63,705 bases of DNA from Actinomycetales bacterium (GTDB taxonomy: Bacteria > Actinomycetota > Actinomycetes > Actinomycetales > Dermatophilaceae), in the NCBI GenBank assembly GCA_012515595.1, contig JAAYYA010000205.1, forward strand, positions 1 to 63,705, in the 5' to 3' direction. This document shows, in pieces, positions 5,523 through 63,705 of the stretch. Under the pieces are notes generated by a model. That model did no database searches. It was given only the letters and a program-made list of their open reading frames with translations, and was not told where the DNA came from. How positions within the stretch are numbered: the first letter of the stretch is position 1; every line of letters starts with the position of its first letter. The translations under genes and the position numbers were made by a program.

Positions 5523-6152
5523 TCAGCTCAGCGTGACCTCCTCGTCCGGGGTGGCGATCACCACGGACAGTCGCGGGGGTTCGCCCACGCGCACCTGGAT
5601 CGGCCCGCGGGGCGCCTGCAGTGCCTCGAGAGCGCTGCTCAGGCTCGCCGCCTCCGGGTGGCGCGCCCGGAAGCTCACCAGCTTGACCACCTCGAGCCCC
5701 TCGCTCGGGTGCGGCGAGTCGCCCCAGTCGATGAGGAACGGGACCGCACCGTCCAGCGCGGTGTCGGGCGGGGTCAGCTGCCACGCCAGCTCGGTGCCGT
5801 CGGGCCTGGTCCGGCTCATGGGTCGCGGGTCGCCCGGGTCGGTGCCCCGCTCCCGCGCCGCGGCCACCCAGTCGGCGATCCCCTGGACCCGGAGCGCCCA
5901 CCCGGTCACCGTGGGGCCCGTCAGCCCGTCGACCCCGAACGGCCGGCCTGCCGCCGGAGCGGGCTGGTCGGGGTCCGGGGCGATCAGCTCCAGGTAGCAC
6001 TGGCCACCCAGGCCGATGAGGGAGTTGCGGGTCCCCATCCCCGGGTGCGACCCTCCCGGCCGCGCCCGGACGCCGAGGTGCGCCTCGGCATACTGCTCCA
6101 GCTCGGTCAGATCCGGGCCGGCGAGGATGACATGATCAATCTGCGCGCGCAT
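5523..6152 (-). CDS. VOC / glyoxalase-like family protein
   Basis: IDHVILAGPDL...GGSHPGMGTRNSLIGLG..YLELIAPD...VPFLIDWG; RBS GAAGGAG. Confidence 0.85.
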   Translation of the reverse strand: MRAQIDHVILAGPDLTELEQYAEAHLGVRARPGGSHPGMGTRNSLIGLGGQCYLELIAPDPDQPAPAAGRPFGVDGLTGPTVTGWALRVQGIADWVAAARERGTDPGDPRPMSRTRPDGTELAWQLTPPDTALDGAVPFLIDWGDSPHPSEGLEVVKLVSFRARHPEAASLSSALEALQAPRGPIQVRVGEPPRLSVVIATPDEEVTLS

Positions 6153-6238
6153 CGCACTCCTTCCGTCGGCCACCAACCTAGGGCAGGCACCGGTGTGGCG
6201 CAGTGGCGCGGATGCCTCTGGTGCAGTAGCCATAGGAC

Positions 6239-6958
6239 ATGAAAGCCGTCGAGCGGTGGGTGTCCCCGCGCATGGAGCAAGAGTTCACGCTGGTCCGGTG
6301 GGGGCGCTCCGGGGTGCCGGTGCTGGTGCTGCCCACGGCGGGCGGGGACGCCGAGGAGGTCGAGCGGCACCACCTGATCACCAAGCTGGGCGACCTGATC
6401 GAGGGCGGAGCGATCACCGTCTACTCCTGCGACAGCGTCGCCGGGCGGGCGATGACCCGGTCGACGGGCACCGTCGAGTACCGCACCTGGCTGCTCAACC
6501 AGTTCCACTGGGCGGTGGCCCACGAGATCGTGCCCGCGATGCACGTCGACAGCGGGGAGCGACCCGCCATCGTCGCCGGTGCGTCCATCGGTGCGTTCAA
6601 CTCGGTGGCCCTGCTCTGCCGGTTCCCGCAGCTGTTCGGCGCCGCGATCGGCATGTCCGGGACGTATGACGTGGAGCGCTTCGTCGGCGGCGTCACCGAC
6701 GACCTCTACTTCTCCACGCCGCGCCGCTTCCTGCCCGGTCTGGAGGGCCCCTCCCTGGACCTGCTCCGGCAGCGGTTCGTGATCCTCGCGTCGGGCACCG
6801 GCGCGTGGGAGAACATCGACGAGTCCTGGCAGATGGCCAAGGTGCTGGGCGACAAGGGCGTGCCCAACCGCGTCGACGACTGGGGCCCGGACTTCGAGCA
6901 CGAGTGGCCCACGTGGTGGGCGATGCTGCCGCAGTACCTCCGCGAGCTCCTCGGCTAG
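6239..6958 (+). CDS. Putative esterase (alpha/beta hydrolase)
   Basis: Nucleophile elbow GASIG; C-terminal HEWPTW. Confidence 0.8.
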   Translation: MKAVERWVSPRMEQEFTLVRWGRSGVPVLVLPTAGGDAEEVERHHLITKLGDLIEGGAITVYSCDSVAGRAMTRSTGTVEYRTWLLNQFHWAVAHEIVPAMHVDSGERPAIVAGASIGAFNSVALLCRFPQLFGAAIGMSGTYDVERFVGGVTDDLYFSTPRRFLPGLEGPSLDLLRQRFVILASGTGAWENIDESWQMAKVLGDKGVPNRVDDWGPDFEHEWPTWWAMLPQYLRELLG

Positions 6959-6975
6959 GCGCTCCCCCACCCTCG

Positions 6976-7094
6976 ACCGAGCGCACCGTGTTGCGCTCCC
7001 ACACCCGACCGGGCGCACCGCGTTGCGCTCACAGAGGGCACCGGGCGCACGGCGTTGCGCTCTCAGTCCCACCGGGCACCCGTGTTGCGCCCTC
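6976..7094 (+). repeat. Family A 32-bp array, about 4 units (ACCGRGCGCACSGYGTTGCGCTC plus a variable 8-9 nt)
   Basis: Unit starts at 6976, 7008, 7040, 7071; fills the gap between two convergent stop codons. Confidence 0.85.
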
Positions 7095-8103
7095 ACCGCA
7101 GCTTGGCGAGGCGCTCCTCGAGCTGCTGGACCCGGTGGCTGTTGCCGTGCAGCCCCACGTACTCCTGGCCGTAGACCGCCAGCAGCGCATCGTCGAGCCG
7201 CCGCACCGCCGCCGGCGGGTAGCGGTAGCCCATGCGGGCGTTGGTGGCCTCGCTGTCGAGGCCTCCCAGCACGTGCGCCAGCTCCTCGAGGGAGGTGATG
7301 CCCAGCTCGAGCAGCAGCCCGGAGATCCACGTGTAGTGCTCGGTGCGGGACCAGCCGGCATCGGGATAGGTGCCCGCCAGGAACTTGGCCAGCTCCTGGG
7401 CGCTCAGCCGGGGGTCGTCCTCGTCGGCCGCCTCCGCCGGCTGCTCGGGCAGCGCCTCCTGGAGTCGGTCCCGGATCGTCGAGAACTCCTGGTCGGCGAG
7501 CTCCAGCAGGCCCGCGGCCAGCGTGAACCGGCGGTTCAGGTCCGGCGCGAAGGCCTCGGGGATGGTCCCCTTGTAACGGATGTCGTGCTCGAACTCTGCC
7601 CACGCGTGCTGCAGCACGGTGCGGATCTGCACGGACGCGGTGTAGGTGCGCAGCGCCTCCTGCTCGGGCCGCAGCGTCCGGCTGGCGTCCACGGCCACCA
7701 CCAGGTGCCGGCTCGAGTAGCCCCAGCGCCCCTGCTCGGCGGTCTCCTGCCCCATGTCACGGTCCTCAAGGACGGTGAGCTCACCGGCGAGCAACCGCGC
7801 CACCGCTGCCACGTCGTCGCGGACGTAGGTGATCACCCGCAGCCCGATCTGGTCGGTGATCTGCTCGAGGGGGTCGGGGTAGAGCAGCTTCCCGTCGACG
7901 CGGCGGGCCGCCTTGCCCGCGAAGCTCTCCACCGTCTTGGTGCGCCCCGTGACGGTCAGGTAGTTGATGCCAGCGTCGTCGAGCGCCGAGGTGATGAGGG
8001 CCACGAAACCCTGCGTGGCGCGGACCAGGGCGGGCTGGCGCTCGTCATACTGCCGGACCGCGTCCCGCACCCGGTCCGCCTCGTTCGGATCCACCGTCGT
8101 CAT
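7093..8103 (-). CDS. RelA/SpoT synthetase-domain protein (small alarmone synthetase type)
   Basis: RTKTVESFAGK, ITDQIGLRVI, GYSSRHLVV, VQIRTVLQHAWAEFEHDIRYK motifs; no hydrolase, TGS or ACT domains. Confidence 0.88.
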   Translation of the reverse strand: MTTVDPNEADRVRDAVRQYDERQPALVRATQGFVALITSALDDAGINYLTVTGRTKTVESFAGKAARRVDGKLLYPDPLEQITDQIGLRVITYVRDDVAAVARLLAGELTVLEDRDMGQETAEQGRWGYSSRHLVVAVDASRTLRPEQEALRTYTASVQIRTVLQHAWAEFEHDIRYKGTIPEAFAPDLNRRFTLAAGLLELADQEFSTIRDRLQEALPEQPAEAADEDDPRLSAQELAKFLAGTYPDAGWSRTEHYTWISGLLLELGITSLEELAHVLGGLDSEATNARMGYRYPPAAVRRLDDALLAVYGQEYVGLHGNSHRVQQLEERLAKLR

Positions 8104-8127
8104 GCACCCATCCTGTCGGAAGGTCGG

Positions 8128-8520
8128 TCAGCCCAGCACCTCGACGGGGCAGCGCACCCCGGCGGCCGTCCGCAGCCGGTGGTCACCGGTGAGCAGCGGC
8201 ACGTCGAGCGCCTCGGCGAGCGCGACGTAGGCCGCGTCGTAGGCGGTCACGTTGTCCCGGAGCTCCCAGATCCGGCGCAGCAGAGGTCGGTGCGGGACCC
8301 GCCGCAGCGGGAAGATCTCGATCGCGCCGAGCGCGCGGTCAGCCTGGCTCTCCTCCAGCTTGCCGCCGCGCACCAGACCGCGCAGCGCGTTCGCGAACTC
8401 GATGTCGATCAGCTCCGGCGCCACCAGCCGCTCTGCGCGCAGCCGCCGACGGATCGGCGCGCTCACCTGGTCAGGCGACACCACGACCGCCACCAGGACC
8501 GAGTTGTCCAGGACGATCAC
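8128..8520 (-). CDS. vapC: Type II toxin, VapC family PIN-domain RNase
   Basis: VIVLDNSVLV...ELIDIEFANALR...NVTAYDAAYVALAEALDVPLLTGDHRL; GTGA overlap with the antitoxin stop. Confidence 0.9.
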   Translation of the reverse strand: MIVLDNSVLVAVVVSPDQVSAPIRRRLRAERLVAPELIDIEFANALRGLVRGGKLEESQADRALGAIEIFPLRRVPHRPLLRRIWELRDNVTAYDAAYVALAEALDVPLLTGDHRLRTAAGVRCPVEVLG

Positions 8521-8750
8521 CGTGCTCGTCCGGCGCGCTGGACCTCCACGATGTCCTCCATCGTCGGCCCGGTCGCCCAGGACAGGTCTGCTCTGGCGCG
8601 CTCCAGGACCTCGGCAACCTCGGGCTCGGCGGCCTGCTGCTCGAGGGTGATCCGCAGGTACTCCTGCAACGACCGCCCTGAGGCAGCGGCCCGCCGCCGG
8701 AGCACCGCGTAGGCCTCGTCGTCCAGGTTGCGGATCTGCACCGTCGCCAT
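8517..8750 (-). CDS. FitA-like ribbon-helix-helix antitoxin
   Basis: MATVQIRNLDDEAYAVLRRRAAASGRSLQEYLR; directly upstream of and overlapping the PIN toxin. Confidence 0.88.
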   Translation of the reverse strand: MATVQIRNLDDEAYAVLRRRAAASGRSLQEYLRITLEQQAAEPEVAEVLERARADLSWATGPTMEDIVEVQRAGRAR

Positions 8751-8762
8751 GCATGCATAATA
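8749..8762 (-). promoter_or_regulatory. Leaderless TA promoter (-10 TATTAT) with palindrome ATGCATGCAT over the start codon (candidate operator)
   Basis: Minus strand reads TATTAT-GCATGC-ATG; perfect 10-bp palindrome at 8749-8758. Confidence 0.55.
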
Positions 8763-8817
8763 GCGCTGGTCTGCCGTAATTTCGGCGCGTCCACCCCTTC
8801 AGGCAACGGGTCATCTG

Positions 8818-8886
8818 GGCCGTGCGACCGGATGGGCGCCAGGTGCGTGCCTGGACGTCGCATGGCGCCCATCTGGTCGCATGGCC
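8818..8886. repeat. 24-bp inverted repeat with 21-nt loop (REP-like hairpin)
   Basis: GGCCGTGCGACCGGATGGGCGCCA / TGGCGCCCATCTGGTCGCATGGCC; both non-Watson-Crick positions are G-T on the + strand. Confidence 0.8.
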
Positions 8887-8927
8887 GGGAGGGGGTGGGT
8901 GCCGCCGGGGGGCCCGGGACAGCGAAA

Positions 8928-8956
8928 GGCCCGGTGAGCGGATCGCTCACCGGGCC
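8928..8956 (-). terminator. Intrinsic terminator after rplA
   Basis: Perfect 13-bp stem GGCCCGGTGAGCG-GAT-CGCTCACCGGGCC, followed by TTTCGCT on the minus strand. Confidence 0.8.
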
Positions 8957-8975
8957 CCTCGGCCTACGAGTCAGG

Positions 8976-9686
8976 TCACTCGGCGGAGGCCACCGTGCTG
9001 GAGACGCGCGACGGGTCGACCGGGATGCCCGGGCCCATCGTGGTGCTCACGGTCGCCTTGGTCACGTAGCGGCCCTTGGAGGAGGCCGGCTTCAGCCGCA
9101 GCACCTCGTCGATGGCGGCGCTGTAGTTCTGCACCAGCTTGTCGGCGTCGAACGAGGTCTTGCCGATGATGAAGTGCAGGTTGGCGTGCTTGTCGACGCG
9201 GAACTCGATCTTGCCACCCTTGATGTCGCTGACGGCCTTGGCGGTGTCCATCGTGACGGTGCCGGTCTTCGGGTTCGGCATCAGGCCGCGGGGGCCCAGC
9301 ACCTTGCCCAGACGACCGACCTTGCCCATCAGGTCCGGGGTGGCGACGACGGCGTCGAAGTCGAGCCAGCCACCGGCGACCTTCTCGAGCAGGTCGTCGG
9401 ACCCGACGTGGTCGGCGCCGGCCTCACGGGCGGCCTCGGCCTTGTCGCCGTTGGCGAAGACCAGGACGCGGGCGGTCTTGCCCGTGCCGTTGGGCAGGTT
9501 GACCGTGCCGCGGACCAGCTGGTCGGCCTTGCGGGGGTCGACGCCGAGCCGCAGGGCGACCTCGACGGTCGCGTCGTACTTGGTGGTCGAGGTCTCCTTG
9601 GCCAGGGTGATGGCCTCGACGGGGGTGTAGAACTTGCCGTCCTCGATCTTCTCGGCGGCGGCGGTGTAGGCCTTGCTGCGCTTCAT
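8976..9686 (-). CDS. rplA: 50S ribosomal protein L1
   Basis: MKRSKAY...[24 protein letters not shown]...[16 protein letters not shown]. Confidence 0.98.
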
Positions 9687-9710
9687 GTCTGCTCCTTGGA
9701 AAGGGGTGGA

Positions 9711-9747
9711 GTTGTGGTCTGCGGACCAGCGCGGGTCCTGCCACGTG
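9711..9747 (-). promoter_or_regulatory. Putative L1-binding regulatory RNA site upstream of rplA
   Basis: GTGGCAGGACC...GGTCCGCAGACCAC stem with asymmetric internal loop just upstream of the rplA RBS. Confidence 0.5.
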
Positions 9748-9838
9748 AGGGCGAGGCCCTCGGGAGTATGCCGGAGGGTCACCTCCGGCGGTGAGGTCCG
9801 GTCCCCGACGGGTCGGGGCCGGCCTCGGTGGTCGGGGC

Positions 9839-10270
9839 TCAGGCCTCGACGGTGATGCCCATCGACCGGGCGGTGCCGGCGATGATCTTGGCGGCCTGGT
9901 CGATGTCGTTGGCGTTCAGGTCGGCCATCTTGGTCTCGGCGATCTCGCGCACCTGGGCCTGGGTCAGCTTGGCGACCTTGGTCTTGTGCGGCTCACCGGA
10001 GCCCTTGGCGACGCCCGCGGCCTTCTTGATCAGCTCGGCGGCCGGCGGGGTCTTGGTGATGAACGTGAACGAGCGGTCCTCGTAGACCGTGATCTCGACC
10101 GGGATGACGTTGCCACGCTGGGACTCCGTCGCGGCGTTGTAGGCCTTGACGAACTCCATGATGTTGACGCCGTGCTGACCGAGCGCGGGGCCGACCGGCG
10201 GAGCCGGGGTGGCCGCACCGGCCTGGATCTGCAGCTTGATGAAGCCGGAGACCTTCTTCTTGGGGGGCAT
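9839..10270 (-). CDS. rplK: 50S ribosomal protein L11
   Basis: [30 protein letters not shown]...[10 protein letters not shown]. Confidence 0.98.
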
Positions 10271-10336
10271 AGCTGTTCCTTCTGGGTTGTGGGCCCACGC
10301 CTAGGGGCGATGACCCGGTTGCAGTGTCCCGAGCGA

Positions 10337-11179
10337 TCAGATCTTGGCGACCTGGTTGAACGAGAGCTCGACCGGGGTCTCCCGGCCGAAGATGGAGACG
10401 AGCACCTTGAGCTTCTGGCTCTCGGGGATGATCTCCGAGATCGTGGCGGGCAGGGTCTCGAAGGGGCCCTCCATGACGGTGACCGACTCGCCGATCTCGA
10501 AGTCGACCTCGGCCGGGGAGGTGCGGGCGGCCGGCGTGGCCGCGCCCTTGGCGGCGCCCTCGCCCGCGGCGTCACCGGACTCCGGGGTGTCGAAGACGGG
10601 GGCCAGCATGGTGATGACCTCGTCGATGCTCAACGGCACCGGCTGGTGGGCGTTGCCGACGAAGCCGGTGACCCCCGGGGTGTGCCGGACCGCGCCCCAC
10701 GACTCGTCGGTCAGGTCCATCCGGACCAGGACGTAGCCGGGCATCCGCACCCGGCGGACCTGCTTGCGCACGCCGGACTTGATCTCGGTAACCTCCTCCA
10801 TCGGCACCTCGACCTGGAAGATGTAGTCCTCCATGTTGAGGCTCGTGGCGCGGGTCTCGAGGTTGACCTTCACCCGGTTCTCGTAGCCGGCGTAGGAGTG
10901 GATGACGTACCAGTCGCCGAACTGGGAGGCCAGGGTGGAGCGGAACTCCTCCATCGGGTCCACGGCGGGCTCGTCCTCCGCGCCCTCGTCCTCGGCGGCC
11001 TCACCCTCGGCGGCCGCATCCTCGGCGGCCGCGTCCTCGGACTCGGCCGGCGCCTCGGTGACGGCGTCCTGCGCAACCGGCGCCTCGGCATACTCCTCGG
11101 CGGCACCGTCGGCGTCGAGGGTCGCGTCAGCCGCGTCAACCTCGGGCGCCTCGTCGGCGTTCGTCCACTGTTCGGACAT
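10337..11179 (-). CDS. nusG: Transcription termination/antitermination factor NusG
   Basis: [35 protein letters not shown] and KOW domain ending [17 protein letters not shown]. Confidence 0.97.
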
Positions 11180-11258
11180 GACTACTTCCTCACTACTGTC
11201 GGGCGGGTGGCCGCGCGCGGCCGGTGGCGGTCTGCTGCGACCACGCGGATGGGGCTGG

Positions 11259-11507
11259 TCAGCCGCCGAAGACGAACTCGACGGCGCGGGTGAAGATCTG
11301 GTCCAGACCGATGACGTAGCCCATCACGATCAGCACGAACACCAGCACGACGATCGTGTAGACGATCAGCTCACGCTGGGTCGGCCGGTGCACCTTGCGC
11401 AGTTCGGCCATGACCTGGGCCACGTAGGTGCTGGGACGGGGCGGTGCTCCGGCCGGCGCGTGGCCGCGGTCGACACCCTGGGTGCCGCGGGCGCTTGTCT
11501 CAGACAC
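11259..11507 (-). CDS. secE: Preprotein translocase subunit SecE
   Basis: [13 protein letters not shown] followed by one TM helix; lies between tRNA-Trp and nusG. Confidence 0.93.
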
Positions 11508-11559
11508 GGACTACCTTTCTCACACTTCATCGTCGGACGACCTGCATGGTCGCGTCGCG

Positions 11560-11632
11560 CAGGGCACGAGGGACTCGAACCCCCAACCGCTGGTTTTGGA
11601 GACCAGTGCTCTACCAATTGAGCTAGTGCCCT
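11560..11632 (-). tRNA. tRNA-Trp (CCA)
   Basis: AGGGCACTAGCTCAATTGGTAGAGCA-CTGGT-CT-CCA-AA-ACCAG...GGTTCGAGTCC...GTGCCCTG cloverleaf. Confidence 0.96.
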
Positions 11633-11798
11633 AGATGGCGCCGGGGCCCGGTGGGCAGGCTCCAGCATGGGATGCGTCAACATCCGAGGGGCAAGTCTAC
11701 GCGATCAGACCGGCCGGTGCTAACCAGCCGACGGACGACCGCTCGACGGAGCCCGACTACCGGACTGGCGCTGCCGCCGCGGGTGGTTGAATGGCACG

Positions 11799-13007
11799 GT
11801 GACCGAGCGCACCCACACCTCCCGCATCTCCGCCCGCATCGGCTCCATCGCCGAGTCCGCCACCCTGGCCGTCGACGCCAAGGCCAAGGCGCTCAAGGCC
11901 CAGGGCCGCCCGGTGATCGGGTTCGGCGCCGGGGAACCGGACTTCCCCACGCCCGACTACATCGTCGCCGCCGCGGTGGCCGCAGCCCAGGACCCGGTGA
12001 ACCACCGCTACTCCCCCGCCGGCGGCCTGCCCGACCTGAAGGCGGCGATCGTCGCCAAGACCCAGCGGGACAGCCAGTATGCCGTGGAGCCGGCCAACGT
12101 GCTGGTCACCAACGGCGGCAAGCAGGCGGTGTACAACACCTTCGCGACCCTGCTCGACCCGGGCGACGAGGTGCTGCTGCCGACGCCGTACTGGACGACC
12201 TATCCGGAGGCGATCCGCCTGGCCGGCGGCGTCCCGGTCGACGTCTTCGCCGGCGCCGACCAGGGTTACCTCGTGTCGGTGGACCAGCTTGAGGCGGCCC
12301 GCACCGACCGCACGAAGGTGCTCCTGTTCTGCTCGCCCTCCAACCCGACGGGCGCCGTGTACTCCCCGGAGCAGGTCGAGGCGATCGGCCGGTGGGCGCT
12401 CGAGCACGGTGTCTGGGTGGTGACGGACGAGATCTACGAACACCTGCTCTACGACGGTGCCGCTGCCCCGTCGATGCCGGTGGTCGTGCCGGAGCTGGCC
12501 GACACCTGCGTCGTGCTCAACGGCGTCGCCAAGACCTACGCCATGACCGGGTGGCGCGTGGGCTGGATGATCGGCCCGAAGGACGTGGTCAAGGCCGCCA
12601 CCAACCTGCAGTCGCACGCGACCTCCAACGTCGCCAACGTCTCGCAACGGGCCGCGATCGCCGCGCTGCAGGGGTCGCTGGAGGCCGTCGACGAGATGCG
12701 CACCGCCTTCGACCGGCGCCGGCAGACGATCGTCGCGATGCTCAACGAGATCGAGGGCGTGACCTGCCCGACCCCGCAGGGCGCGTTCTACGCCTACCCG
12801 AGCGTCGCCGGCGTGCTCGGCCGCACCATCCGCGGCCGCACCCCGCAGACCTCCGCCGAGCTCGCCGAGCTGATCCTCGACGAGGTGGAGGTGGCGGTCG
12901 TGCCCGGCGAGGCGTTCGGCCCCTCGGGCTACCTGCGGCTCTCGTACGCCCTGGGCGACAACGACCTCGCCGAGGGCGTCGGCCGCATCCAGGAGCTCCT
13001 GCGCTGA
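11799..13007 (+). CDS. PLP-dependent class I/II aminotransferase (aspartate aminotransferase-like)
   Basis: [37 protein letters not shown]; start taken at GTG 11799. Confidence 0.92.
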
Positions 13008-13099
13008 CCCCACAAAAAATGTAGGGGTTTCGCACACCCTCCACACATTTTCGTAGTGGTTTCGTCGGTCCTCCACGCCTTATCGCAGGGGTATTGCAC
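13008..13099 (+). repeat. Family B 32-bp array, 3 units (box YAGKGGTTTTGC)
   Basis: Boxes at about 13022, 13054, 13086; begins with CCCC immediately after the aminotransferase stop. Confidence 0.85.
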
Positions 13100-13301
13100 C
13101 TGCTCCTGGTCTCCCTGCGCGGGCACCCACAGAGCCCCAGGCCCGCCACTGCCTGACACGAGCCTGTCCCCCTCACGTGAGCAACGGCATACGTCCAGAA
13201 CTGGCTTCTCCTACGCTTTGTAGTAGATAATGGGAGTGCCCGGGCCGTCTTGTCCGGGCAGTCCCGGACATCTCCGTCCGGGGACACGACGGGAGGTAGA
13301 C

Positions 13302-14042: not shown

Positions 14043-14100
14043 GCGACCCACAGAGCTGCTGATCCCGGTCACCGCCTCGCGCTCGGCGGGTGGCCGGGGT

Positions 14101-14191
14101 CAGCGAAACCCCTGCAAAAAGACGGGATGGGGCAGCAAAACCCCTGAGAGAAGACGGGATCGAGCAGCAAAACCCCTGAACTTTTGGGGGG
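14101..14191 (-). repeat. Family B 32-bp array, 3 units
   Basis: CAGCRAAACCCCTG at 14101, 14133, 14165; begins with CCCCCC immediately after the permease TAA on the minus strand. Confidence 0.88.
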
Positions 14192-18459: not shown

Positions 18460-18486
18460 AGGCGCCGGCCCCGCGGGATCGTGCCC

Positions 18487-53195: not shown

Positions 53196-53281
53196 TGATG
53201 AGGGAGAGTGTGCGCGGCGCACCCCCCGCACATCCCCGGTGAAACCGCCACGGAGCCTCCGGGCGTGGTTAACTGACATTC

Positions 53282-55480
<2,199 letters not shown>

Positions 55481-57646
55481 CTACTCGAAGCGTCCGCCGG
55501 CGGCGGCCAGCTCGACGAGGGACTCCGGCGGCTCGAAGTGCGGCCCGTAGGCCGCGGCGAGCTCGCGGGCGCGCTCGGCGAAGCCGGCGGGTCCGCCGTC
55601 GTACTGGTTGACGAACTGGAGCACGCCGCCGGTCCACGGCGGGAAGCCGATGCCCTGGATGGAGCCGACGTTGGCGTCCGCGACCGAGCGCAGGACGCCC
55701 TCGTCCAGGCACCGGATGGTGTCGATCGCCTCGGCGAAGAGCATCCGCTCCTGCAGGTCCCTGACCGGCACGTCGGTCCCGGTCGTGAAGTGCTCCCGCA
55801 GGCCGGGCCACAGCCTGGTCCGGCGCCCGCTCTCGTCGTAGTCGTAGAAGCCCGCCCCGCTGGACCGGCCGGCCCGCTCGTGGGTGTCGATCATCGCGTC
55901 GACGACCGCCTCGGCCCCGTGCGCCGTCCACTCGCCGGTCTCGGCCAGGGCCGCGGCCCGGGTCTCCTCGCGGATCTTGCGGGGCAGGGTGAGGGTGAGC
56001 TCGTCGAGGAGCTGGAGCGGCCCGGTCGGGTAGCCGGCCTGGAGCGCGGCCTGCTCGACCCGGGCCGGCTCGACGCCCTCGCCCACGGCGGCGACGCCCT
56101 CGTCGATGAACCGCCCGATGACCCGGGAGGTGAAGAAGCCGCGCCGGTCGTTGACCACGATCGGCGTCTTGCGGATCTGTCGGACGAAGTCGAAGACCTT
56201 GGCCAGCGTCGCGTCGCTGGTCCGCTCGCCGACGACGATCTCGACCAGGGGCATCTTGTCGACCGGGGAGAAGAAGTGGATGCCGATGAAGTCCTCGGGC
56301 CGGCTCACCCCCTCGGCGAGCGTGGTGATGGGCAGCGTGGAGGTGTTGCTGCCCAGCACCGCGTCCGGCTCGACGACCGGCTCGATCTCGGCGAAGACCT
56401 GCTGCTTGAGCGGCACCGACTCGAAGACCGCCTCGATGACGAAGTCGACGCCGGCCAGGTCGGCCGGGTCGGCGGACGGGGTGATCCGGCCCAGGAGCGC
56501 CGCGGACTTCTCCTCGGTCGTCCTGCCCCGCTCCAGGGCCCTGGCCTCGAGCTTCTCGGCATAGCCCTTGCCCCGCACCGCGGCGGCCTCCTCGACGTCC
56601 TTGAGGACGACCTCGATGCCCGCCTTCGCGCAGACGTAGGCGATGGCGGCCCCCATCATCCCGGCGCCGATCACGCCGACCCGGCGCGCGGCATACTCCG
56701 GCTGCCCCTCGGGGCGGTTGGCGCCGCCGTTGACCTTCTGGGTGTCGAAGAAGACCCCGATCATGTTCTTGGTGACCTGCTCCCCGCAGATGAGACTGAC
56801 CAGGTAGCGGGTCTCGATGAGGTTGGCCGTGTCGAAGTCGACCAGGGTGCCCTCGACGGCCGCCGCGAGGGCGGCCCGGGGTGCGGGGTAGGGCGCGCCC
56901 TTGGTCTGCTTCCGGACGTTCGCGGCGTAGGCCGGGAGCTGGCTGGCCATGCGCGGCGAGCTGGCCCCGCCGCCGGGGATCTTGTAGGCCTTGTCGTCCC
57001 AGGGCTGGGTGGCCTCCGGGTTGGACCTGATCCAGGCCTTGGCGGCCGGGACCAGCTCCTCGGGGGTGGCGACGAGCTCGTCGACGACGCCCTTCGCGTG
57101 GGCGTCGGCCGGGGAGTACTGCGCGCCGGTGAGGACCCACTCGGTCAGCGCGAGGTGCAGCCCGAGCATCCGGACCAGCCGGGTCACCCCGCCCCCGCCG
57201 GGGAGGAGGCCGAAGGTGACCTCCGGGACCCCGAGGCGGATGCGGGGGTCGTCCACGGCGACCCGGTGGTGGGTCGCGAGGGCGACCTCGAGGCCGCCGC
57301 CGAGGGCGCTGCCGTTGAGCGCGGCGACGACGGGACGGCCGAGCAGCTCGAGGCGGCGGAAGTGCGCCTTGATGTCGTTGATGTGGTCGGTGTGCTGCTG
57401 CGCGTGCTCCGGCGCGCCCTGCGCGAGCAGGCCGAGGTCTCCCCCGGCGAAGAAGGTCTTCTTGGCGCTGGTGATCACCACGCCGGTGATGGTGTCCTTC
57501 TCCTGCTCCAGCCGTGCGACCATCGCGTGGAGCCCGTCGACCCACGTCTGGTTCATCGTGTTCACGGAGCTGTCCGGGTCGTCCATCGTGACGGTGACGA
57601 TGCCGTCGGCGTCCTGCTCCCAGCGCAGGCCCTTGAGGTCGGTCAT
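55481..57646 (-). CDS. fadB: Fatty-acid oxidation multifunctional enzyme (enoyl-CoA hydratase / 3-hydroxyacyl-CoA dehydrogenase)
   Basis: FFAGGDL, ALGGGLE, PEVTFGLLPG, GAGMMG, IEAVFE, SNTS, HFFSPV. Confidence 0.9.
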   Translation of the reverse strand: MTDLKGLRWEQDADGIVTVTMDDPDSSVNTMNQTWVDGLHAMVARLEQEKDTITGVVITSAKKTFFAGGDLGLLAQGAPEHAQQHTDHINDIKAHFRRLELLGRPVVAALNGSALGGGLEVALATHHRVAVDDPRIRLGVPEVTFGLLPGGGGVTRLVRMLGLHLALTEWVLTGAQYSPADAHAKGVVDELVATPEELVPAAKAWIRSNPEATQPWDDKAYKIPGGGASSPRMASQLPAYAANVRKQTKGAPYPAPRAALAAAVEGTLVDFDTANLIETRYLVSLICGEQVTKNMIGVFFDTQKVNGGANRPEGQPEYAARRVGVIGAGMMGAAIAYVCAKAGIEVVLKDVEEAAAVRGKGYAEKLEARALERGRTTEEKSAALLGRITPSADPADLAGVDFVIEAVFESVPLKQQVFAEIEPVVEPDAVLGSNTSTLPITTLAEGVSRPEDFIGIHFFSPVDKMPLVEIVVGERTSDATLAKVFDFVRQIRKTPIVVNDRRGFFTSRVIGRFIDEGVAAVGEGVEPARVEQAALQAGYPTGPLQLLDELTLTLPRKIREETRAAALAETGEWTAHGAEAVVDAMIDTHERAGRSSGAGFYDYDESGRRTRLWPGLREHFTTGTDVPVRDLQERMLFAEAIDTIRCLDEGVLRSVADANVGSIQGIGFPPWTGGVLQFVNQYDGGPAGFAERARELAAAYGPHFEPPESLVELAAAGGRFE

Positions 57647-57674
57647 GAGTGTGCTTCCTTCCGGGGTCGTGGGG

Positions 57675-58883
57675 TCAGACGCGCTCGATGACGGTGGCGA
57701 TGCCCATGCCGGCACCGACGCAGAGGGTCACCAGGCCGGTGGCCAGGTCACGGCGCTCGAGCTCGTCGAGCACGGTGCCCAGGATCATCGCCCCGGTGGC
57801 GCCGAGCGGGTGGCCCAGGGCGATGGCGCCGCCGTTGACGTTGACCTTGTCGTGGTCGATGTCGAGATCGCGCATCCACTTCAGGACCACGGAGGCGAAG
57901 GCCTCGTTGAGCTCGAAGAGGTCGATGTCGCCGACCGACATGCCGGCCCGGCGCAGCGCCTTCTGGGTGGCGGGCGCGGGCCCGGTGAGCATGATCGTGG
58001 GCTCGCTGCCGATGACGGCGGTCGACCGGATCCGGGCGCGCGGGGTGAGCCCGGCGCGCTGTCCGGCGGCCTCGCTGCCCAGCAGGACGAGGGCGGCCCC
58101 GTCGACGATGCCGGAGGAGTTGCCCGCGGTGTGGACGTGCTGGATGCGCTCGACGTCGGGGTAGCGCTGGAGGGCGACGGCGTCGAAGCCGCCCTGGGCG
58201 CCGATCTGCTCGAAGGCCGGCTTGAGGGCGCCCAGGGACTCCAGCGTGGCGTCGGGCCGGGGGTGCTCGTCGTGGGCCAGGACCGGCACCCCGTTGAGGT
58301 CGCGCACCGGCACGATGCTGCGGTCGAACCGGCCGTCGGCAGCCGCCTTGGCGGCGCGCCGCTGCGACTCGAGCGCGAAGCCGTCGACGTCCTCCCGGCT
58401 GAAGCCCTCGATCGTGGCGATCAGGTCGGCGCCGATGCCCTGGGGCACGAAGGAGACGTCGTAGGCGGTCGCCGGGTCCTGGAAGTACGCCCCGCCGTCG
58501 GAGCCCATCGGCACCCGCGACATCGACTCGACACCGCCGGCGAGGACGAAGTCGTCCCCGGCCAGGATCTTCGCCGCCCCGGTGTTGACTGCCTCCAGGC
58601 CGGAGGCGCAGAACCGGTTGAGCTGGACCCCCGCCACGGTCTGCGGAAGGCCACCGACGAGGGCAGCGGTGCGGGCGATGTCGCCACCCTGCTCCCCCAC
58701 GGGCGACACGACGCCGAGAACGATGTCGTCGACGGCGGCCAGGTCGAGCCCGGGGTTGCGGGGGGTCAGCGCGTCGAGCAGGCCGACCACGAGGTCGACC
58801 GGTTTGACGGAGTGGAGCGCACCGCCCCGGTTCTTGCCGCGGGGCGTGCGGAGCGCGTCGTAGATGTAGGCCGTGTCGGTCAT
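57675..58883 (-). CDS. fadA: Acetyl-CoA acyltransferase (thiolase)
   Basis: [28 protein letters not shown]. Confidence 0.9.
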
Positions 58884-58931
58884 GGCACCGTGCTTTCGGG
58901 ACGGGTGGTCGGGGTGGTGGGTGTCAGGGGG

Positions 58932-60080
<1,149 letters not shown>

Positions 60081-60141
60081 GGTGTGCCTCCTCGGACGAC
60101 CACTCGGACGGACGCCCCATCATCACCTATCCGGGGCCATT

Positions 60142-60159
60142 TGTAAATCAGGATTCACA
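60142..60159. promoter_or_regulatory. Candidate operator, copy 2
   Basis: TGTAAATCAGGATTCACA near-palindrome, 62 nt upstream of the acyl-CoA dehydrogenase gene. Confidence 0.6.
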
Positions 60160-60277
60160 TCCTAGACCACGTCGGAAGATTCCGGCCGAGGTGGGGTGCA
60201 ACACCGGCGCCCTCCCGGACAATGGAGGAGGTAGAGGGCCACACGTCGTCGTGGGCCGCCGGAGTGAGGGAGGACCG

Positions 60278-60802
60278 ATGGTGTTTGGCCTGTCGGAGGG
60301 GAGCGGCGTGGGTCCACCGACCCGGGACGCCGCGTGGTTCGACCAGCTGTTCGCCGAGCACGCCGTGTCGGTGCACCGCTACTTCGTGCGGCGCGCCCCG
60401 CGCCAGGAGGCCGAGGACCTCGTGGCCGAGGTGTTCTCGGTCGCCTGGCGGCGCCGGGACAGCATCCCGGAGGACTTCGTGCTCCCGTGGCTCTACAAAA
60501 CCGCCTCCTACGTGCTCAGCAACCACCGCCGCAAGCCGACGCTGACGCTGCTGGCCGACGTGGGGAGCACGGCCGACGAACGGACCCGCAGCATGGACCC
60601 GGCCGACCTGGTCGTCGAGGACGACGACGTCCGCAACGCCCTGGCCCGGCTGAGCTCGCGGGACCGGAAGGTCCTCATGCTCCACGCCTGGGAGGGACTC
60701 GACGGCGAGGGACTGGCCAGGGCCCTGGGGATGACCCGGGGCGGCGCCGCCGCCGCGCTCTCCCGCGCGCGGGCCAGGCTCCGGGAGGCCTGGGTCTCAT
60801 GA
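60278..60802 (+). CDS. ECF-type RNA polymerase sigma factor
   Basis: Region 2 AEDLVAEVF...PWLYKTA; region 4 LARLSSRDRKVLML...LSRARARLRE; RBS GGAGG. Confidence 0.9.
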   Translation: MVFGLSEGSGVGPPTRDAAWFDQLFAEHAVSVHRYFVRRAPRQEAEDLVAEVFSVAWRRRDSIPEDFVLPWLYKTASYVLSNHRRKPTLTLLADVGSTADERTRSMDPADLVVEDDDVRNALARLSSRDRKVLMLHAWEGLDGEGLARALGMTRGGAAAALSRARARLREAWVS

Positions 60803-60900
60803 GCGACACCACACACCGCGGCAACAGCCGCGACACCCGGGACATAGAGCAGGCAGGAGGCCGCCAGGCAGGGCGGCCCGGCAGGGAGGACGCACGATGA
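60799..60900 (+). other. 33-codon mini-ORF overlapping both flanking genes by ATGA
   Basis: ATG at 60799 overlaps the sigma stop; TGA at 60898-60900 overlaps the ATG at 60897. Confidence 0.35.
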
Positions 60901-62432
60901 ACGACTACCAGGACGACGAGGCCCTGGCCCGGCTCCGGGCCGCCGACCCCGCGACGGGTGCGCACCCCGACCTGCACCGGATCTCCCAGCGGCTCCGGGG
61001 GCGGACCCCGCTGGGCAGCGGGCCGGTGGGCGGCTTCGCCCCGGGCACGGGCTACAGCTTCTCCGACACCAGCGACACCGCCGTCCGGGTCAGCGACCCG
61101 GGCGCCCGGACCAGCCGCGTCGGCTTCGTGGTCGCGGCCTCGGTCGCGGCGCTCGCCTTCGGGGGCGGCGGCTACGTCATGGGGGTCGCCAGCGGTGATG
61201 ACGACCAGGGCGGACCGACCACCACGGCGGCGGACTCCGACGACGAGCGCGAGGCCAGCGACGGGTCGGACTCCGTCGAGGACCTGGCGGCGAGCGAGGG
61301 CGAGGCCTACGGGGGCGACGGCGACATCGGCTACGACTCCGCGGCCGGCGGCTACGCCGGCCCCGTGGTCCCCGTCGCCGGCGACGGCCTGTCGACGGAG
61401 CGCACGACCGGCACGGTCTACGCCGCGGACCAGGGCGGCGAGGCCGCGGACCCGGGTGCCCTGCTCGAGCAGTATGCCGGGGCGCTGGGGATCGAGGGCA
61501 CGACCGAGTCGGACAGCCAGACGGCCTACGTCACCGACGCCACCGACGGCCGGAGCGTTCACGTCTACGCGCACGGCGGCCTCGTCTCGGTCGACTACTC
61601 CAACCCCGCCCTCGACCCCTACTGCGAGGACTACATGGCCGAGCCGGGCATGATGTTCGGCGAGGACGGTCCGGACACCATCACGTGCGTCCCGCCGGGC
61701 GAGGCACCCGACGAGGAGACGGCCATCGCCCTGGTGAAGGAGTTCGCGGACACCGCGGGGTTCAGCTACGACGACTACGAGTTCCGCTTCGAGGTCTTCG
61801 ACCCGATGATCGCCTACGGCGAGGACTACGAGGAGCTCATGGGCGAGCAGGGCGAGGCACCGCCGGCGGACGACACGGTCGACACCAGCGCCTCCACGGC
61901 CGCTCCGGATGCCCAGGATCTGCTGGAGCGAGCCATCGAGGAGTGGGGGCCGGAGGGCTACCCGGACGTCCTCGACGTGTCGGTCACCGCTCACCGCACC
62001 GACGCGCCCCTGAAGAACTACCAGTCCTGGTACTTCGGGGTCACCGACCAGGGCGTGTCCTACGCCAGCTTCCAACTGGGCGAGTACGTCTCGCTCGGTG
62101 ACTACCCGGTGATCTCGCCGGCCGAGGCGGTCGAGCGCGCCAACGACATCCGGTTCCAGCAGATCGGCGCCTACATCCCGGACCTGGAGTTCGACGCCAG
62201 CTACTTCGAGGAGTGGACCGAGCCGGAGCCGCTGCCGCCGCTGACGGCCGGGGAGCCGATCCCCTACCCGCTGACCGAGTCGACGGTCACCGGCGCGGAG
62301 TTGCACTCCGGCGTGGTGAACCTGTGGGACGGCACCGAGTTCATCGCGCCGGTCTACCACCTCACCGACGACGAGGGCAACAGCTGGCAGGTGCTCGGCC
62401 TCGCCGAGGACGCCCTGGACTTCACCCCCTGA
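60897..62432 (+). CDS. Membrane-anchored protein with large acidic external domain (candidate anti-sigma factor)
   Basis: Short N-terminal region, one TM (VGFVVAASVAALAFGGGGYVMGV), D/E-rich remainder; directly downstream of the ECF sigma gene. Confidence 0.75.
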   Translation: MNDYQDDEALARLRAADPATGAHPDLHRISQRLRGRTPLGSGPVGGFAPGTGYSFSDTSDTAVRVSDPGARTSRVGFVVAASVAALAFGGGGYVMGVASGDDDQGGPTTTAADSDDEREASDGSDSVEDLAASEGEAYGGDGDIGYDSAAGGYAGPVVPVAGDGLSTERTTGTVYAADQGGEAADPGALLEQYAGALGIEGTTESDSQTAYVTDATDGRSVHVYAHGGLVSVDYSNPALDPYCEDYMAEPGMMFGEDGPDTITCVPPGEAPDEETAIALVKEFADTAGFSYDDYEFRFEVFDPMIAYGEDYEELMGEQGEAPPADDTVDTSASTAAPDAQDLLERAIEEWGPEGYPDVLDVSVTAHRTDAPLKNYQSWYFGVTDQGVSYASFQLGEYVSLGDYPVISPAEAVERANDIRFQQIGAYIPDLEFDASYFEEWTEPEPLPPLTAGEPIPYPLTESTVTGAELHSGVVNLWDGTEFIAPVYHLTDDEGNSWQVLGLAEDALDFTP

Positions 62433-62458
62433 CCCGGACCGGGGCAGGCCCGGGTCAC

Positions 62459-62492
62459 CAGCGGGTGCCGCGCGTGCTGCGCGGCACCCGCT
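62459..62492. terminator. Hairpin between convergent genes
   Basis: CAGCGGGTGCCGCGC...GCGCGGCACCCGCTG. Confidence 0.65.
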
Positions 62493-62538
62493 GCGTGTCC
62501 GGCGAGAGTATGCCGTGGGGCGCGGTGCGAGGACCGGG

Positions 62539-63705
62539 TCAGGCGAAGGTCTCCCGCGAGCGCAGCACCTCGCGGAGCACCGACCGCTGGTCGACGAGGG
62601 CCCGCCGGACGGCGGGCGACAGTGACCCGCCGGCCAGGGCCTGCTCGGTCGCCTCGACCGTCGCCTCCTCCACCACGGCGCGCGGGTAGGCCAGGGAGGC
62701 CACCCGGGCCAGCGCGTCCTGCCCGACCCGCCCCTCCAGCGCAGGGACGTCGCGGTGGAAGCGCGCGACATACGGCCGGACCAGGTCAGTATGCCGACCG
62801 GTCCAGAACCCGGCGGCCAGCGCGTTCAGCTCGTGGTTGGAGCGGCCGTGGTCGCCGACCAGCTGCTCCCACGCCCAGGCCTTGTCGTCCTCGGTGGGCA
62901 GGGCGGCGCGGGCGGTGAGCGCGCCCAGGTTGCCCTGCAGCGAGTCGTCCTCGGCCCGGGCCGCCTCCAGCTCCGCGACCGTGGCGGCGCCGGTCACCGC
63001 GAGGGAGCGCAGCACCAGCCACCGGAAGTCCCGGTCCCCGGCCAGGCCGTCGGGCAGCCCCTCCCCCGCGGCCCAGCGGCGCAGCAGGTCCGCGTCCCGG
63101 CTGGTCGCGGCCAGCACTCGGGCCGCCGCCAGCACCTGCGTGGAGCCGGGCGCCGCCGAGCCCAGCCGGGCCCGCGCCGCCCCGGCCACCGCGCCCTGGG
63201 CCTCGGGGACCGCCTCGTCGGGGAGGTACTCCCCCAGCACGCGGGATGACAGCAGGGCCCCGGAGCGACTCAGGATCGAGGGGTTGTCCTCGGTGGGCCA
63301 GGCCGCGGCAAAGGTGTCGACGACGAGCCGCGGGTCGACCGTCGCGGTGGCCAGCCCGTCGGTGAGGGCGACCCAGACGACCGCGCGGTGCTGGGCCGAT
63401 CCGACCGAGGCGAGCTGCCGCGGCAGGGCCGCGAGGCTCTCCTCCGAGAGCACCACGCGCGCCCAGGTCAGGTCGCCGGCGTTCGGGATGAGCAGGGCCG
63501 GCTCCGCTGCGGCACCCGGCACCTCTATATCCGGCACCTCTATATCCGGCGCCGCGGCATCCGGCGCCCCGTCCCCGACGCCGGCCTGACCGGCGCCCAC
63601 CGGCACGGTGACCTCGTCGCGGTCCACCGTCGCCCCCACCCGGAGCACCTCTCGGCCGTCGGTCCACCCCGCCACATCCAGCGTGTGCGGGCGGTCGGCC
63701 GGCCG
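62539..63705 (-). CDS. pepN: Aminopeptidase N, C-terminal (ERAP1-like) part; 5' end lies outside the window
   Basis: RPHTLDV..., LLIPNAGDLTWARV, DRDFRW, ALPTEDDKAWAW, GFW..., LVRPYV; catalytic HEXXH not in window. Confidence 0.75.
   Translation of the reverse strand, partial: RPADRPHTLDVAGWTDGREVLRVGATVDRDEVTVPVGAGQAGVGDGAPDAAAPDIEVPDIEVPGAAAEPALLIPNAGDLTWARVVLSEESLAALPRQLASVGSAQHRAVVWVALTDGLATATVDPRLVVDTFAAAWPTEDNPSILSRSGALLSSRVLGEYLPDEAVPEAQGAVAGAARARLGSAAPGSTQVLAAARVLAATSRDADLLRRWAAGEGLPDGLAGDRDFRWLVLRSLAVTGAATVAELEAARAEDDSLQGNLGALTARAALPTEDDKAWAWEQLVGDHGRSNHELNALAAGFWTGRHTDLVRPYVARFHRDVPALEGRVGQDALARVASLAYPRAVVEEATVEATEQALAGGSLSPAVRRALVDQRSVLREVLRSRETFA
63516..63550. repeat. 15-bp tandem duplication inside pepN
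   Basis: CCGGCACCTCTATAT x2 plus CCGGC; encodes PDIEVPDIEVP. Confidence 0.85.

Follow-up and report, generated by a model that had tools for sequence, protein, structure and literature searches.

A chromosome-wide signal in many Dermatophilaceae: CGGCATAC with a one-sided tail as a possible DNA uptake sequence

In many Dermatophilaceae the octamer CGGCATAC, together with a one-sided tail of ~40 bp, forms a sequence signal spread over the whole chromosome. We consider the chances about even that it is a DUS/USS-like self-DNA signal accumulated through biased DNA uptake and recombination. The signal was studied in the window, i.e., the whole stretch of 63,705 nucleotides analysed here, in its source genome (an Ornithinimicrobium, to judge from MurB similarity) and in other genomes of the class. 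We found no earlier description of it in the literature, and no papers on transformation in Dermatophilaceae.

Results

Copies in the window

A sequence-only reading of the window had listed 27 copies of CGGCATAC; all 27 matched exactly, 15 on the + strand and 12 on the - strand, and the next base was T in 15 of them, as it had said. Shuffled versions of the window contained a mean of 0.96 and a maximum of 4 copies. Genes were named by an NCBIfam scan and their boundaries, taken from our own gene caller, are approximate. Outside called genes lay the copies at 6086..6093 (+), 13185..13192 (+) and 30536..30543 (+), the last a short way ahead of the adenosine deaminase gene, whose start was called at 30559, and the copy at 62508..62515 (-) was located between convergent genes. 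Copies read as TAT GCC were those at 11086..11093 (+; gene 10337-11179, -), 12077..12084 (-; gene 11799-13007, +), 23099..23106 (+; peptide ABC transporter gene 22761-24938, -), 37459..37466 (+; gene 37178-38080, -), 39840..39847 (+; gene 39493-40812, -), 46201..46208 and 46246..46253 (both +; gene 46016-46582, -), 55225..55232 (+; gene 54494-55474, -), 56689..56696 (+; fadJ/fadB-like gene) and 61472..61479 (-; gene 60897-62432, +). The reading was GCA TAC at 14483..14490 (-; gene 14192-14914, -), 29273..29280 (+; gene 28561-29568, +), 35431..35438 (-; murB), 37319..37326 and 37910..37917 (both -; gene 37178-38080, -), 39224..39231 (-; gene 38084-39493, -), 41516..41523 (+; gene 40885-41583, +) and 49132..49139 (-; gene 48382-49428, -); it was CGG CAT AC at 9766..9773 (-; gene 8976-9782, -) and ATG CCG at 20453..20460 (+; gene 19955-20983, -). 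Three cases of rare codons cited earlier were borne out: GGC ATA in murB at 35100..35107 (-), GTA TGC CGT in the aldehyde (succinic semialdehyde) dehydrogenase gene at 50334..50341 (+) and CGG CAT ACT in pepN at 62789..62796 (-).

The 14 one-position variants reported with these copies were likewise all in place: six of CGACATAC, on either strand, at 4337, 4348, 13471, 16250, 35687 and 62766 (span 4337..62773); seven of CGTCATAC, on either strand, at 6664, 8043, 25928, 30866, 34647, 43602 and 47876 (span 6664..47883); and CGCCATAC at 15006..15013. All are position-3 variants. An example of the full element is found at 6047..6098 (+), with the tail reaching from -38 (5' of the core) to about +13 (3').

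Enrichment across the genome and its imprint on codons and proteins

The source genome had 1,681 copies, 849 and 832 on the two strands, and CGGCATAC was its top 8-mer under an order-2 model (66 copies expected; 100 under order 3). All six coding frames showed an excess, with 81% of the copies coding, and intergenic DNA was also enriched, which rules out confinement to the window or to a single frame. The synonymous-codon shuffle had been set beforehand as the refuting test, and the coding excess remained: 1,362 copies vs. 91 after a global shuffle, 155 after a shuffle within genes and 486 when the shuffle was conditioned on neighbouring amino acids. The enrichment is real and its genomic extent exceeds what the sequence-only reading described. 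The reversed word CATACGGC was enriched as well (224 vs. 43); it is not a clean control because it overlaps CGGCATACGGC. An origin in Illumina adapters was rejected: although CGGCATAC forms part of the P7 adapter, there were 0 copies of the extended adapter context, and complete chromosomes have the octamer as well.

Silent sites are near saturation. In the context G-TAY-GCC-G, where the motif hinges on a single silent change, TAT was used in 739 of 837 cases vs. a background of 7.7%; at motif-deciding sites GCA took 281 of 662 positions (background 4.2%) and ATA 166 of 586 (background 0.5%). These codon shifts need different mutation types, yet the odds move about 17- to 90-fold, indicating a force that acts on the whole motif. 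TAT also prevailed at motif sites of Knoellia (122/140) and other CGGCATAC-rich genomes (91/108), and was not used at such sites of Janibacter-type (0/28) or poor genomes (0/46). The octamer bends protein sequences as well: in the proteome the peptides TAY (2.0x), VCR (1.6x), YAV, YAE and RHT (1.5x each) and SMP (1.4x) were in excess, with their reversed controls at 0.76-0.99x, and motif-permissive peptides numbered 40 per 10,000 aligned residues vs. 27 in Janibacter-type orthologs.

A strict core and a one-sided tail

Position 3 was the tolerant position of the core: the genome contained 435 copies of CGACATAC, 449 of CGTCATAC and 179 of CGCCATAC, and coding copies of the first two exceeded the shuffled ones (345 vs. 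40 and 333 vs. 43). One-mismatch neighbours were mostly not enriched outside position 3 (summed, 2,872 vs. 2,398 expected), and CAGCATAC (0 vs. 32 expected) and CGGTATAC (1 vs. 23 expected) were depleted. The 5' side of the core carried a weak, GC-rich tail of about 40 bp (chi-square 1,898, vs. 353 on the 3' side, on 99 df; control words 137-144), giving a core-plus-tail footprint of about 50 bp; the tail is a statistical property over all sites, which single sites do not show readably. It had peaks of A at -10, -22 and -28 and of G at -13 and -25, and its profile was common to the source genome and Knoellia (r=0.69). TAT use could be predicted from the tail by a matrix trained on 990 separate sites, rising from 114/153 to 150/152 over the quintiles (p=2e-14). 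The resemblance of the tail consensus to the KOPS-like GGGNAGGG was put down to chance, with 0 exact matches at that offset.

Placement on chromosomes and in mobile DNA

In the draft genome the gap sizes were random (CV 0.98 vs. 1.02 simulated); neither quasi-periodic spacing, within the range that its short contigs allow, nor helical phasing of pair distances in the gap histogram and pair-phasing analysis was seen. Strand polarity was absent from the contigs, a weak test in which the KOPS control itself reached only p=0.04, and no replichore polarity was seen on complete chromosomes, nor a gradient along one of them, the origin of the sampled chromosome not having been located. The earlier claim of a genome-wide, frame-independent and non-polarised signal is supported by the genome counts, the six-frame excess and these polarity tests. 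Inverted pairs were rare (16 among 1,213 gaps). Only two 400 bp windows contained four sites, with nothing special by dnaA, so that clustering at oriC or autoregulated genes was not seen.

The octamer is scarce in mobile elements: of two ICE-like contigs, one (26.6 kb) had 0 copies and the other (24 kb) had 2, and phage TJE1 had 2 in 49 kb. A plasmid search found no plasmids of Dermatophilaceae. A pattern scan of viral contigs returned 18 loci of low GC, with hosts not assigned.

Lineage range, losses and a replacement word

Rich genomes made up 140 of the 250 Dermatophilaceae genomes and 0 of the 198 other genomes of the class. They contained hundreds to thousands of copies each, over a tenfold density range, and the word was lost in nested lineages within the family; this range and these losses argue against an essential chromosome role. 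Position 3 and the flanks varied in a dialect-like manner within the CGGCATAC group. In 12 Janibacter-type genomes CGGCATAC was missing and CGAAGGGG stood in its place, and no genome had both. GAA was used in the CGAAGGGG context in 71 of 105 Janibacter-type cases vs. 23 of 321 in genome G000. The Janibacter-type word RCGAAGGGGG was fourfold denser in intergenic DNA (2.5 per kb vs. 0.61 in genes), and CGAAGGGG formed hairpins (10 inverted pairs among 321 sites, several of them perfect). The earlier description had included neither the tail nor this replacement, nor the range over the family with its nested losses.

Samples of 20-84 kb from other poor genomes revealed no clear replacement word; candidates in G295 and G173 were traced to single repetitive genes. 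CGGCGTAC/CGCCGTAC were mildly elevated in G094, G135 and G292. Among peptide-permitted sites, G000 shared 11 of 18 with Knoellia (baseline 16/72) and 15 of 24 with other rich genomes (baseline 23/79), and Knoellia retained 11 of 46 G000 sites.

Search for a reader protein

Uptake genes were present: a ComEA-family match in 147 of 151 genomes, ComEC in 5/5, and DprA and the DUF4244 pilin in 24/24 each, a ComEA/ComEC/DprA/pilin-type set being described as required for transformation of Micrococcus luteus (PMC4322843). These genes occurred in rich and poor genomes alike and did not track the octamer, and ComEC was apparently frameshifted in rich G108 and in poor G292. Among ComEA, ComEC, RecC, TadE, TadB, DUF4244, DprA and TadA-type ATPases no reader correlated with motif class, nor did pilin alignments or the synteny around comEA/EC. 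Most minor pilins of both tad clusters were acidic or close to neutral, and no pattern set the classes apart; a pattern scan of G000 showed no ComP-like pilin. With the C382-type TadB query, an ortholog was not found in the near-complete rich genomes G221, G071, G080, G149, G266 and G184, or in CGAAGGGG-rich G113.

Four Pfam methyltransferase families yielded no DNA methyltransferase common to five rich genomes (PF01555 2/5, PF02384 3/5, PF00145 2/5, PF02086 3/5), and G108, 100% complete and with 1,251 copies, had none of the four. Since no tested family was common to the five, a methylation mark is disfavoured. This bears on the three mechanisms offered by the sequence-only reading (an uptake signal, a methylation or self-recognition mark, a nucleoid-protein site), among which an uptake-like signal is the best-fitting candidate.

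Discussion

Uptake sequences have been reported in two families of Gram-negative bacteria, HIP1 being a disputed third case, and we know of no sequence-specific DNA uptake in Gram-positive bacteria. The octamer resembles DUS/USS in copy number, presence on both strands and in genic and intergenic DNA, lack of polarity and even spacing, and imprint on codon choice and proteins. USS, described as a core with one-sided spaced flanks (PMC12616744), is similar: its core is non-palindromic, its tail is weak, spaced and confined to one side, and it is clade-specific and occurs in hundreds to thousands of copies on both strands, inside genes in low-cost frames (PMC12616744, bioRxiv 10.1101/2025.10.24.684340). 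Unlike USS, CGGCATAC belongs to a monoderm host, its 5' tail is GC-rich where USS has AT tracts, and no pilin receptor candidate was found. Its one-mismatch forms are mostly unenriched, whereas those of DUS/USS are over-represented (PMC1939737 Table 1), and it has few terminator pairs, whereas DUS/USS frequently form inverted pairs (bioRxiv 10.1101/2025.10.24.684340). Clade dialects and hairpins in terminators are described for both DUS and USS (PMC12616744). The clade-specific words are DUS-like in this respect, RCGAAGGGGG being short, denser between genes and hairpin-forming; however, DUS dialects keep an inner core, and CGGCATAC and CGAAGGGG overlap only in CG.

We put the uptake reading at even odds: near-saturation, the one-sided tail, the lack of polarity, the scarcity in mobile DNA and the presence of uptake genes favour it, and it is weakened by the missing reader, the uncorrelated competence genes, the unenriched mismatches, the few inverted pairs and the dialects without a shared core. 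Under this reading a sequence-specific protein would bind the core together with some 40 bp to one side of it, and may engage incoming DNA during or immediately after the Tad pilus/ComEA/ComEC step. Motif-bearing alleles would then displace motif-free ones through homologous recombination at each tolerated site, a molecular drive; reader loss would lead to motif decay, and a reader change in the Janibacter line would have installed CGAAGGGG. More tentatively, at somewhat less than even odds, the observations may be joined into a Gram-positive (monoderm) self-DNA recognition system whose reader is neither a ComP/ComN-type pilin nor a methyltransferase. Its core of 8 bp would be all-or-none and its footprint ~50 bp; the specificity module would have been exchanged as a whole in the Janibacter line, CGGCATAC giving way to CGAAGGGG, and lost on several occasions, with thousands of sites and codons rewritten per genome.

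The genomic traces expected from selection for a binding site inside the cell would be much like those of uptake. An abundant nucleoid or chromosome-organising protein, with sites kept by selection and a tail that reflects DNA bending or wrapping, is unlikely. It requires no competence, and the ~50 bp footprint with its spaced A and G peaks and the site sharing between genera above baseline would suit it. Against it speak the random gaps and unphased pairs, the complete chromosome without gradient, the filling of all cheap sites rather than an optimum number, the repeated loss with no clear substitute word in the poor-genome samples, and the few G000 sites retained in Knoellia.

Chi and KOPS/AIMS are non-palindromic over-represented octamers read by translocating enzymes, replichore polarity being the hallmark of known Chi and a strong orientation towards the terminus that of KOPS/AIMS. 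A Chi-like word, by which a helicase-nuclease (AdnAB-like or other) would spare and recombine linear word-bearing DNA from any entry route, i.e., a cytoplasmic drive, would explain the strict all-or-none core with depleted neighbours and a non-palindromic 8-mer with a one-sided footprint that is scarce in foreign DNA; it is rather improbable, given that no replichore polarity was seen and that RecC is uncorrelated with the motif (poor G295 and G292 have it, and in rich G108 it was not found). The tail has no exact GGGNAGGG either.

HIP1 (GCGATCGC) is also a frame-independent, hyper-abundant octamer of similar density (300-2,700 per Mb), which in some lineages has given way to other words (PMC4390886), and its methylated form reportedly boosts transformation (PMC13756078). 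A HIP1-like element maintained by an orphan methyltransferase with biased repair, or by methylation-dependent uptake, has nevertheless a low probability: HIP1 is palindromic, quasi-periodic and linked to DmtA/DmtC, whereas CGGCATAC is non-palindromic, long-tailed and randomly spaced, and the four methyltransferase families were patchy in rich genomes and absent from G108. As no polarity and, among the four families, no conserved methyltransferase was found, CGGCATAC is not placed with HIP1, Chi or KOPS.

That the octamer is mainly a promoter element, with CATACT as the -10 box of sigma-A promoters, is very improbable; in 24 of 177 sense upstream copies the end lies 7-9 bp from the called start codon that follows (0/110 antisense) and tandem intergenic orientation is skewed (106 vs. 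39), but 1,361 of the 1,681 copies lie within genes in both orientations, and convergent and divergent intergenic densities are equal (0.75/kb and 0.76/kb). Promoter function is a secondary use by a minority of sites, insufficient as the main cause. An artefact of mutation or codon context or a dispersed repeat, despite the 739 of 1,362 coding copies in one frame and the under-use of GTAC throughout the genome (ratio 0.50), is largely refuted by frame, codon and tail data and hardly credible, with six frames and intergenic DNA enriched, transitions and transversions alike leading towards the motif, a neighbour of >85% identity for just 17 of 1,664 tails (median nearest-neighbour tail identity 0.62), and none of the likeness over tens of bases or mainly intergenic location of REP/MITE copies.

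If CGGCATAC is an uptake signal, it would extend such signals to Gram-positive bacteria and provide a practical transformation tag for Terrabacter, Knoellia, Tetrasphaera/Nostocoides and relatives. Whether drive or selection causes words to accumulate is a matter of continuing debate (bioRxiv 10.1101/2025.10.24.684340). With its rich genomes, its nested losses and the complete exchange of one word for another, all among cultured environmental strains, the family amounts to a natural experiment in which the two could be weighed and the reader sought by sister-pair genomics. Both words are, under any mechanism, strong markers of clade and of foreign DNA.

Abundance and coding context of the octamer

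All 27 copies of the octamer CGGCATAC (both strands) that the sequence-only reading had placed in the window were present, where chance gives about 1, together with the 14 one-position variants, the T following 15 of the 27 copies and the three named codon cases in murB, the aldehyde dehydrogenase gene and pepN. The window corresponds to contig C96 in a draft genome of 3.97 Mb and 71.6% GC. Its MurB was 86% identical to that of Ornithinimicrobium cavernae (next matches: Ornithinimicrobium, Serinicoccus, Ornithinicoccus and Knoellia), and this similarity points to the genus Ornithinimicrobium, family Dermatophilaceae as GTDB broadly defines it. Across the genome, CGGCATAC occurred 1,681 times (849/832 per strand) and ranked first among 8-mers under an order-2 model (66 expected); an order-3 model expected 100, and an order-5 model absorbed much of the excess. 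Position 3 was the sole loose core position, with variants CGACATAC, CGTCATAC and CGCCATAC present in 435, 449 and 179 copies. The copies did not form a dispersed repeat family, and a sequencing-adapter artefact was ruled out, the longer adapter context being absent from the genome.

By our own gene calls (3,807 genes), 1,361 copies were coding (0.39/kb), 294 non-coding (0.64/kb) and 26 lay across a gene end. Codon-preserving shuffles gave 91 (global), 155 (within-gene) or 486 (neighbour-amino-acid-conditioned) coding copies against about 1,362 observed, with enrichment over synonymous shuffles in all six frames, as the frame independence proposed earlier had predicted. Codons inside CGNCATAC made up 266 of the genome's 372 ATA and 1,239 of its 2,803 TAT codons. 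In the context G-TAY-GCC-G, where one silent change makes or breaks the motif, TAT was used at 739 of 837 sites versus 7.7% elsewhere; motif contexts also had GCA at 281/662 (background 4.2%) and ATA at 166/586 (background 0.5%). The same TAT preference held in Knoellia (122/140) and other genomes rich in the octamer (91/108); it was 0/28 in Janibacter-type genomes, which carry a replacement word, and 0/46 in poor genomes.

Proteins were affected as well: the motif-encoded tripeptides TAY, YAV, YAE, RHT, VCR and SMP reached 1.4-2.0 times expectation, and AAY, YAG, GIR and GIL showed no rise (0.91-1.06). Motif-permissive peptides per 10,000 aligned residues numbered 40 in this genome versus 27 in Janibacter-type orthologs, and 39 versus 30 in poor-genome orthologs. 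Sites turn over, 11 of 46 being retained in Knoellia overall, and 11 of 18 where the peptide permits (baseline 16/72). Since transitions and transversions both favour the motif, its source is probably an allele-level force, either selection or biased transmission, rather than a mutation hot spot.

Taxonomic range, replacement and loss

The 36 other genomes sampled from the genus all held 377-2,342 copies, and 24 genomes from other families of the order held 3-117. Among 250 family genomes, 140 had at least 125 copies per Mb (maximum 1,506), 100 had at most 60 and 10 fell between; 40 of the family's 73 genera were rich. None of 198 genomes of the class from outside the family exceeded about 52 per Mb, also after removal of the three unpublished ones, G342, G335 and G330. 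The enrichment thus mapped extends well beyond the window and, among the genomes sampled, is restricted to the family. Rich named loci include Ornithinimicrobium, Serinicoccus, Ornithinicoccus, Knoellia, Terrabacter, Terracoccus, Nostocoides and Phycicoccus; poor ones were Janibacter, Agilicoccus, Piscicoccus and Austwickia.

Janibacter loci carried CGAAGGGG in place of CGGCATAC (58 in 73 kb). This word had 1,186-3,180 copies in 12 of the 250 family genomes, from four genera that are presumably Janibacter and its splits, and 77-453 in the other 238. The 12 had only 7-58 copies of CGGCATAC each, and none of the 250 was rich in both words. In 420 kb of the relative G113, CGAAGGGG occurred 321 times with balanced strands, formed hairpin pairs and was denser between genes (2.5/kb) than within them (0.61/kb); it lacked a 5' tail of flanking base preferences and had a weak 3' one. 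Written as RCGAAGGGGG, this second hyper-abundant word often made terminator-like hairpins in Janibacter-type genera (g55, g67, g77, g78) at loci L015, L074, L137, L138, L162-L164, L172 and L174-L193.

A six-gene tree of 18 genomes placed three CGAAGGGG-rich genomes as sister to the rich G164 (0.997) and nested poor genomes next to rich sisters, namely G292 (0.993), G295 (1.0) and G173+G185 (1.0); in the MurB tree, support for the Janibacter placement was only 0.095. With midpoint rooting, we infer that CGGCATAC was ancestral and underwent several losses and one replacement.

Other words were also noted. CGGCGTAC/CGCCGTAC/CCGTACGG showed mildly raised counts in some of the motif-poor genomes and in other actinomycetes (L143, L147, L135-L136; Streptomyces, Kribbella and Enemella loci); codon context, or a weak related signal, may account for this. 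Cellulomonas loci totalling 84 kb (L018, L020, L021, L051) contained 14 copies of AATCGATT, and Nocardioides loci totalling 86 kb (subset of L028-L065) contained 10 of CCCCTTTA, about 0 being expected for each; because these loci are orthologous, both may be shared local elements.

Core, tail and distribution

Frame-corrected base preferences spanned positions -38 to +13 relative to the core, with CA directly 5', TGCC directly 3' and peaks of A at -10, -22 and -28, G at -5, -13, -19 and -25, and C at -37; non-coding copies had the same near tail. The tail was stronger on the 5' side (chi-square 1,898 versus 353 on the 3' side; two control words, 137-144), likewise in Knoellia (501 versus 189), and the two tails correlated (r=0.69; 3' side 0.41). 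Asymmetry was weak in other rich genera pooled (305 versus 262). When trained on 990 other sites, a matrix of the tail predicted TAT use. Upstream of genes, 24 of 177 sense-oriented copies ended 7-9 bp 5' of the start codon, and a minority of copies likely double as -10 boxes.

Per-contig counts were approximately Poisson (chi-square 546, 567 df), gap sizes fitted random placement and pair distances lacked phasing. The absence of strand bias first noticed in the window extended to contigs (chi-square 65, 89 contigs), in a test that a KOPS control shows to be weak. Twenty 20 kb samples spread evenly over the complete chromosome of Knoellia locipacati held 250 copies (65+/72- and 52+/61- per half, the halves not being set relative to the origin), and two of the samples, low in GC, showed dips. 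An 11-mer extension had 177 forward matches there, and the first 100 of them spanned 2.30 of 4.04 Mb, as expected for uniformity. Copies were scarce in mobile-type contigs: C255, which is ICE-like, had 0 in 26.6 kb where 11 were expected; C544, also ICE-like, had 2 in 24 kb; and C518 (transposon/type III RM) had 1 in 12 kb. Contig C498 (14.1 kb; UvrD-like helicase, WhiB-like gene) carries core genes, yet had 0 copies with 6 expected, and so breaks the pattern of scarcity confined to mobile-type contigs. Phage TJE1 (a single phage, 58% GC) had 2 in 49 kb versus 0.9 expected.

Candidate mechanisms

Biased DNA uptake followed by recombination would let the motif accumulate genome-wide, a reading to which we give about an even chance. 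The signal resembles USS/DUS, as portrayed in PMC12616744, PMC1939737 and bioRxiv 10.1101/2025.10.24.684340, in its saturating per-site force, lack of polarity and spacing, core with one-sided tail, clade specificity, scarcity in mobile DNA and dispensability. By genome statistics it is thus like an uptake sequence, and we do not class it as DUS or USS. The Micrococcus luteus uptake gene set, as given in PMC4322843, was present here. Co-occurring competence genes, suggested earlier as a correlate, were indeed found, but in rich and poor genomes alike: ComEA-family domains in 147/151, ComEC in 5/5, DprA and the DUF4244 pilin each in 24/24, and TadA-type ATPases in 10/10. TadB of the C382 contig cluster matched in 228 of 251 genomes searched, weakly in several rich ones, and had no match in five poor genera; pilins from 23 and 20 loci showed no pattern by motif class. 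None of the examined candidates tracked the motif, so no reader protein was identified among them. Against biased uptake stand this lack of a receptor and of correlated competence genes, the all-or-none core, the few terminator pairs and two words (CGGCATAC, CGAAGGGG) without a common core.

An intracellular binding protein is an unlikely source, and a Chi-like cytoplasmic filter somewhat less probable still; presence of RecC did not track the motif. The methylation mark proposed earlier is improbable, as four DNA methyltransferase families failed to track it.

In the poor G292 (L173, G292:C1:261001-281000, and G292:C1:309458), mobile DNA splits the tad cluster, with pilins and a tadC remnant in one place and tadA/tadB about 40 kb off, and ComEC has an apparent frameshift. 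In the draft of the window's genome, the ComEC C-terminal part turns up on both C513 and C41, in copies 96% identical to each other, because of either a duplication or overlapping contigs in the assembly.

No description of either word appeared among the papers listed by free-text, whole-word and family or genus plus uptake-term searches of openly accessible literature, and the listed whole-word matches were, to judge by their titles, unrelated; supplementary tables of large k-mer surveys could list both. One published abstract places the octamer inside a sequencing adapter, and many of the text matches listed were sequencing-method papers. The signal is real, strong, family-wide and apparently undescribed, and adds a natural specificity swap to hyper-abundant genomic signals.

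Other elements in the window

An AT-rich repeat of 32 bp period (core TTTTCGTAG[T/G/C]GGTTT) lies at 13022, 31591, 37525 and 46696 in this 72% GC genome, which has 240 pattern matches and 72 arrays of 2-4 units; it may be REP-like or serve as a binding site for a protein. At 50934-53279 (-), the ORF of the fatty-acid CoA ligase is 781 codons long and runs into the aldehyde dehydrogenase gene; its matches to the family stop near residue 514, pointing to a frameshift or the loss of a stop codon. At 53282-54520 (+) lies a double TetR-type regulator of 412 aa with two HTH-containing halves.
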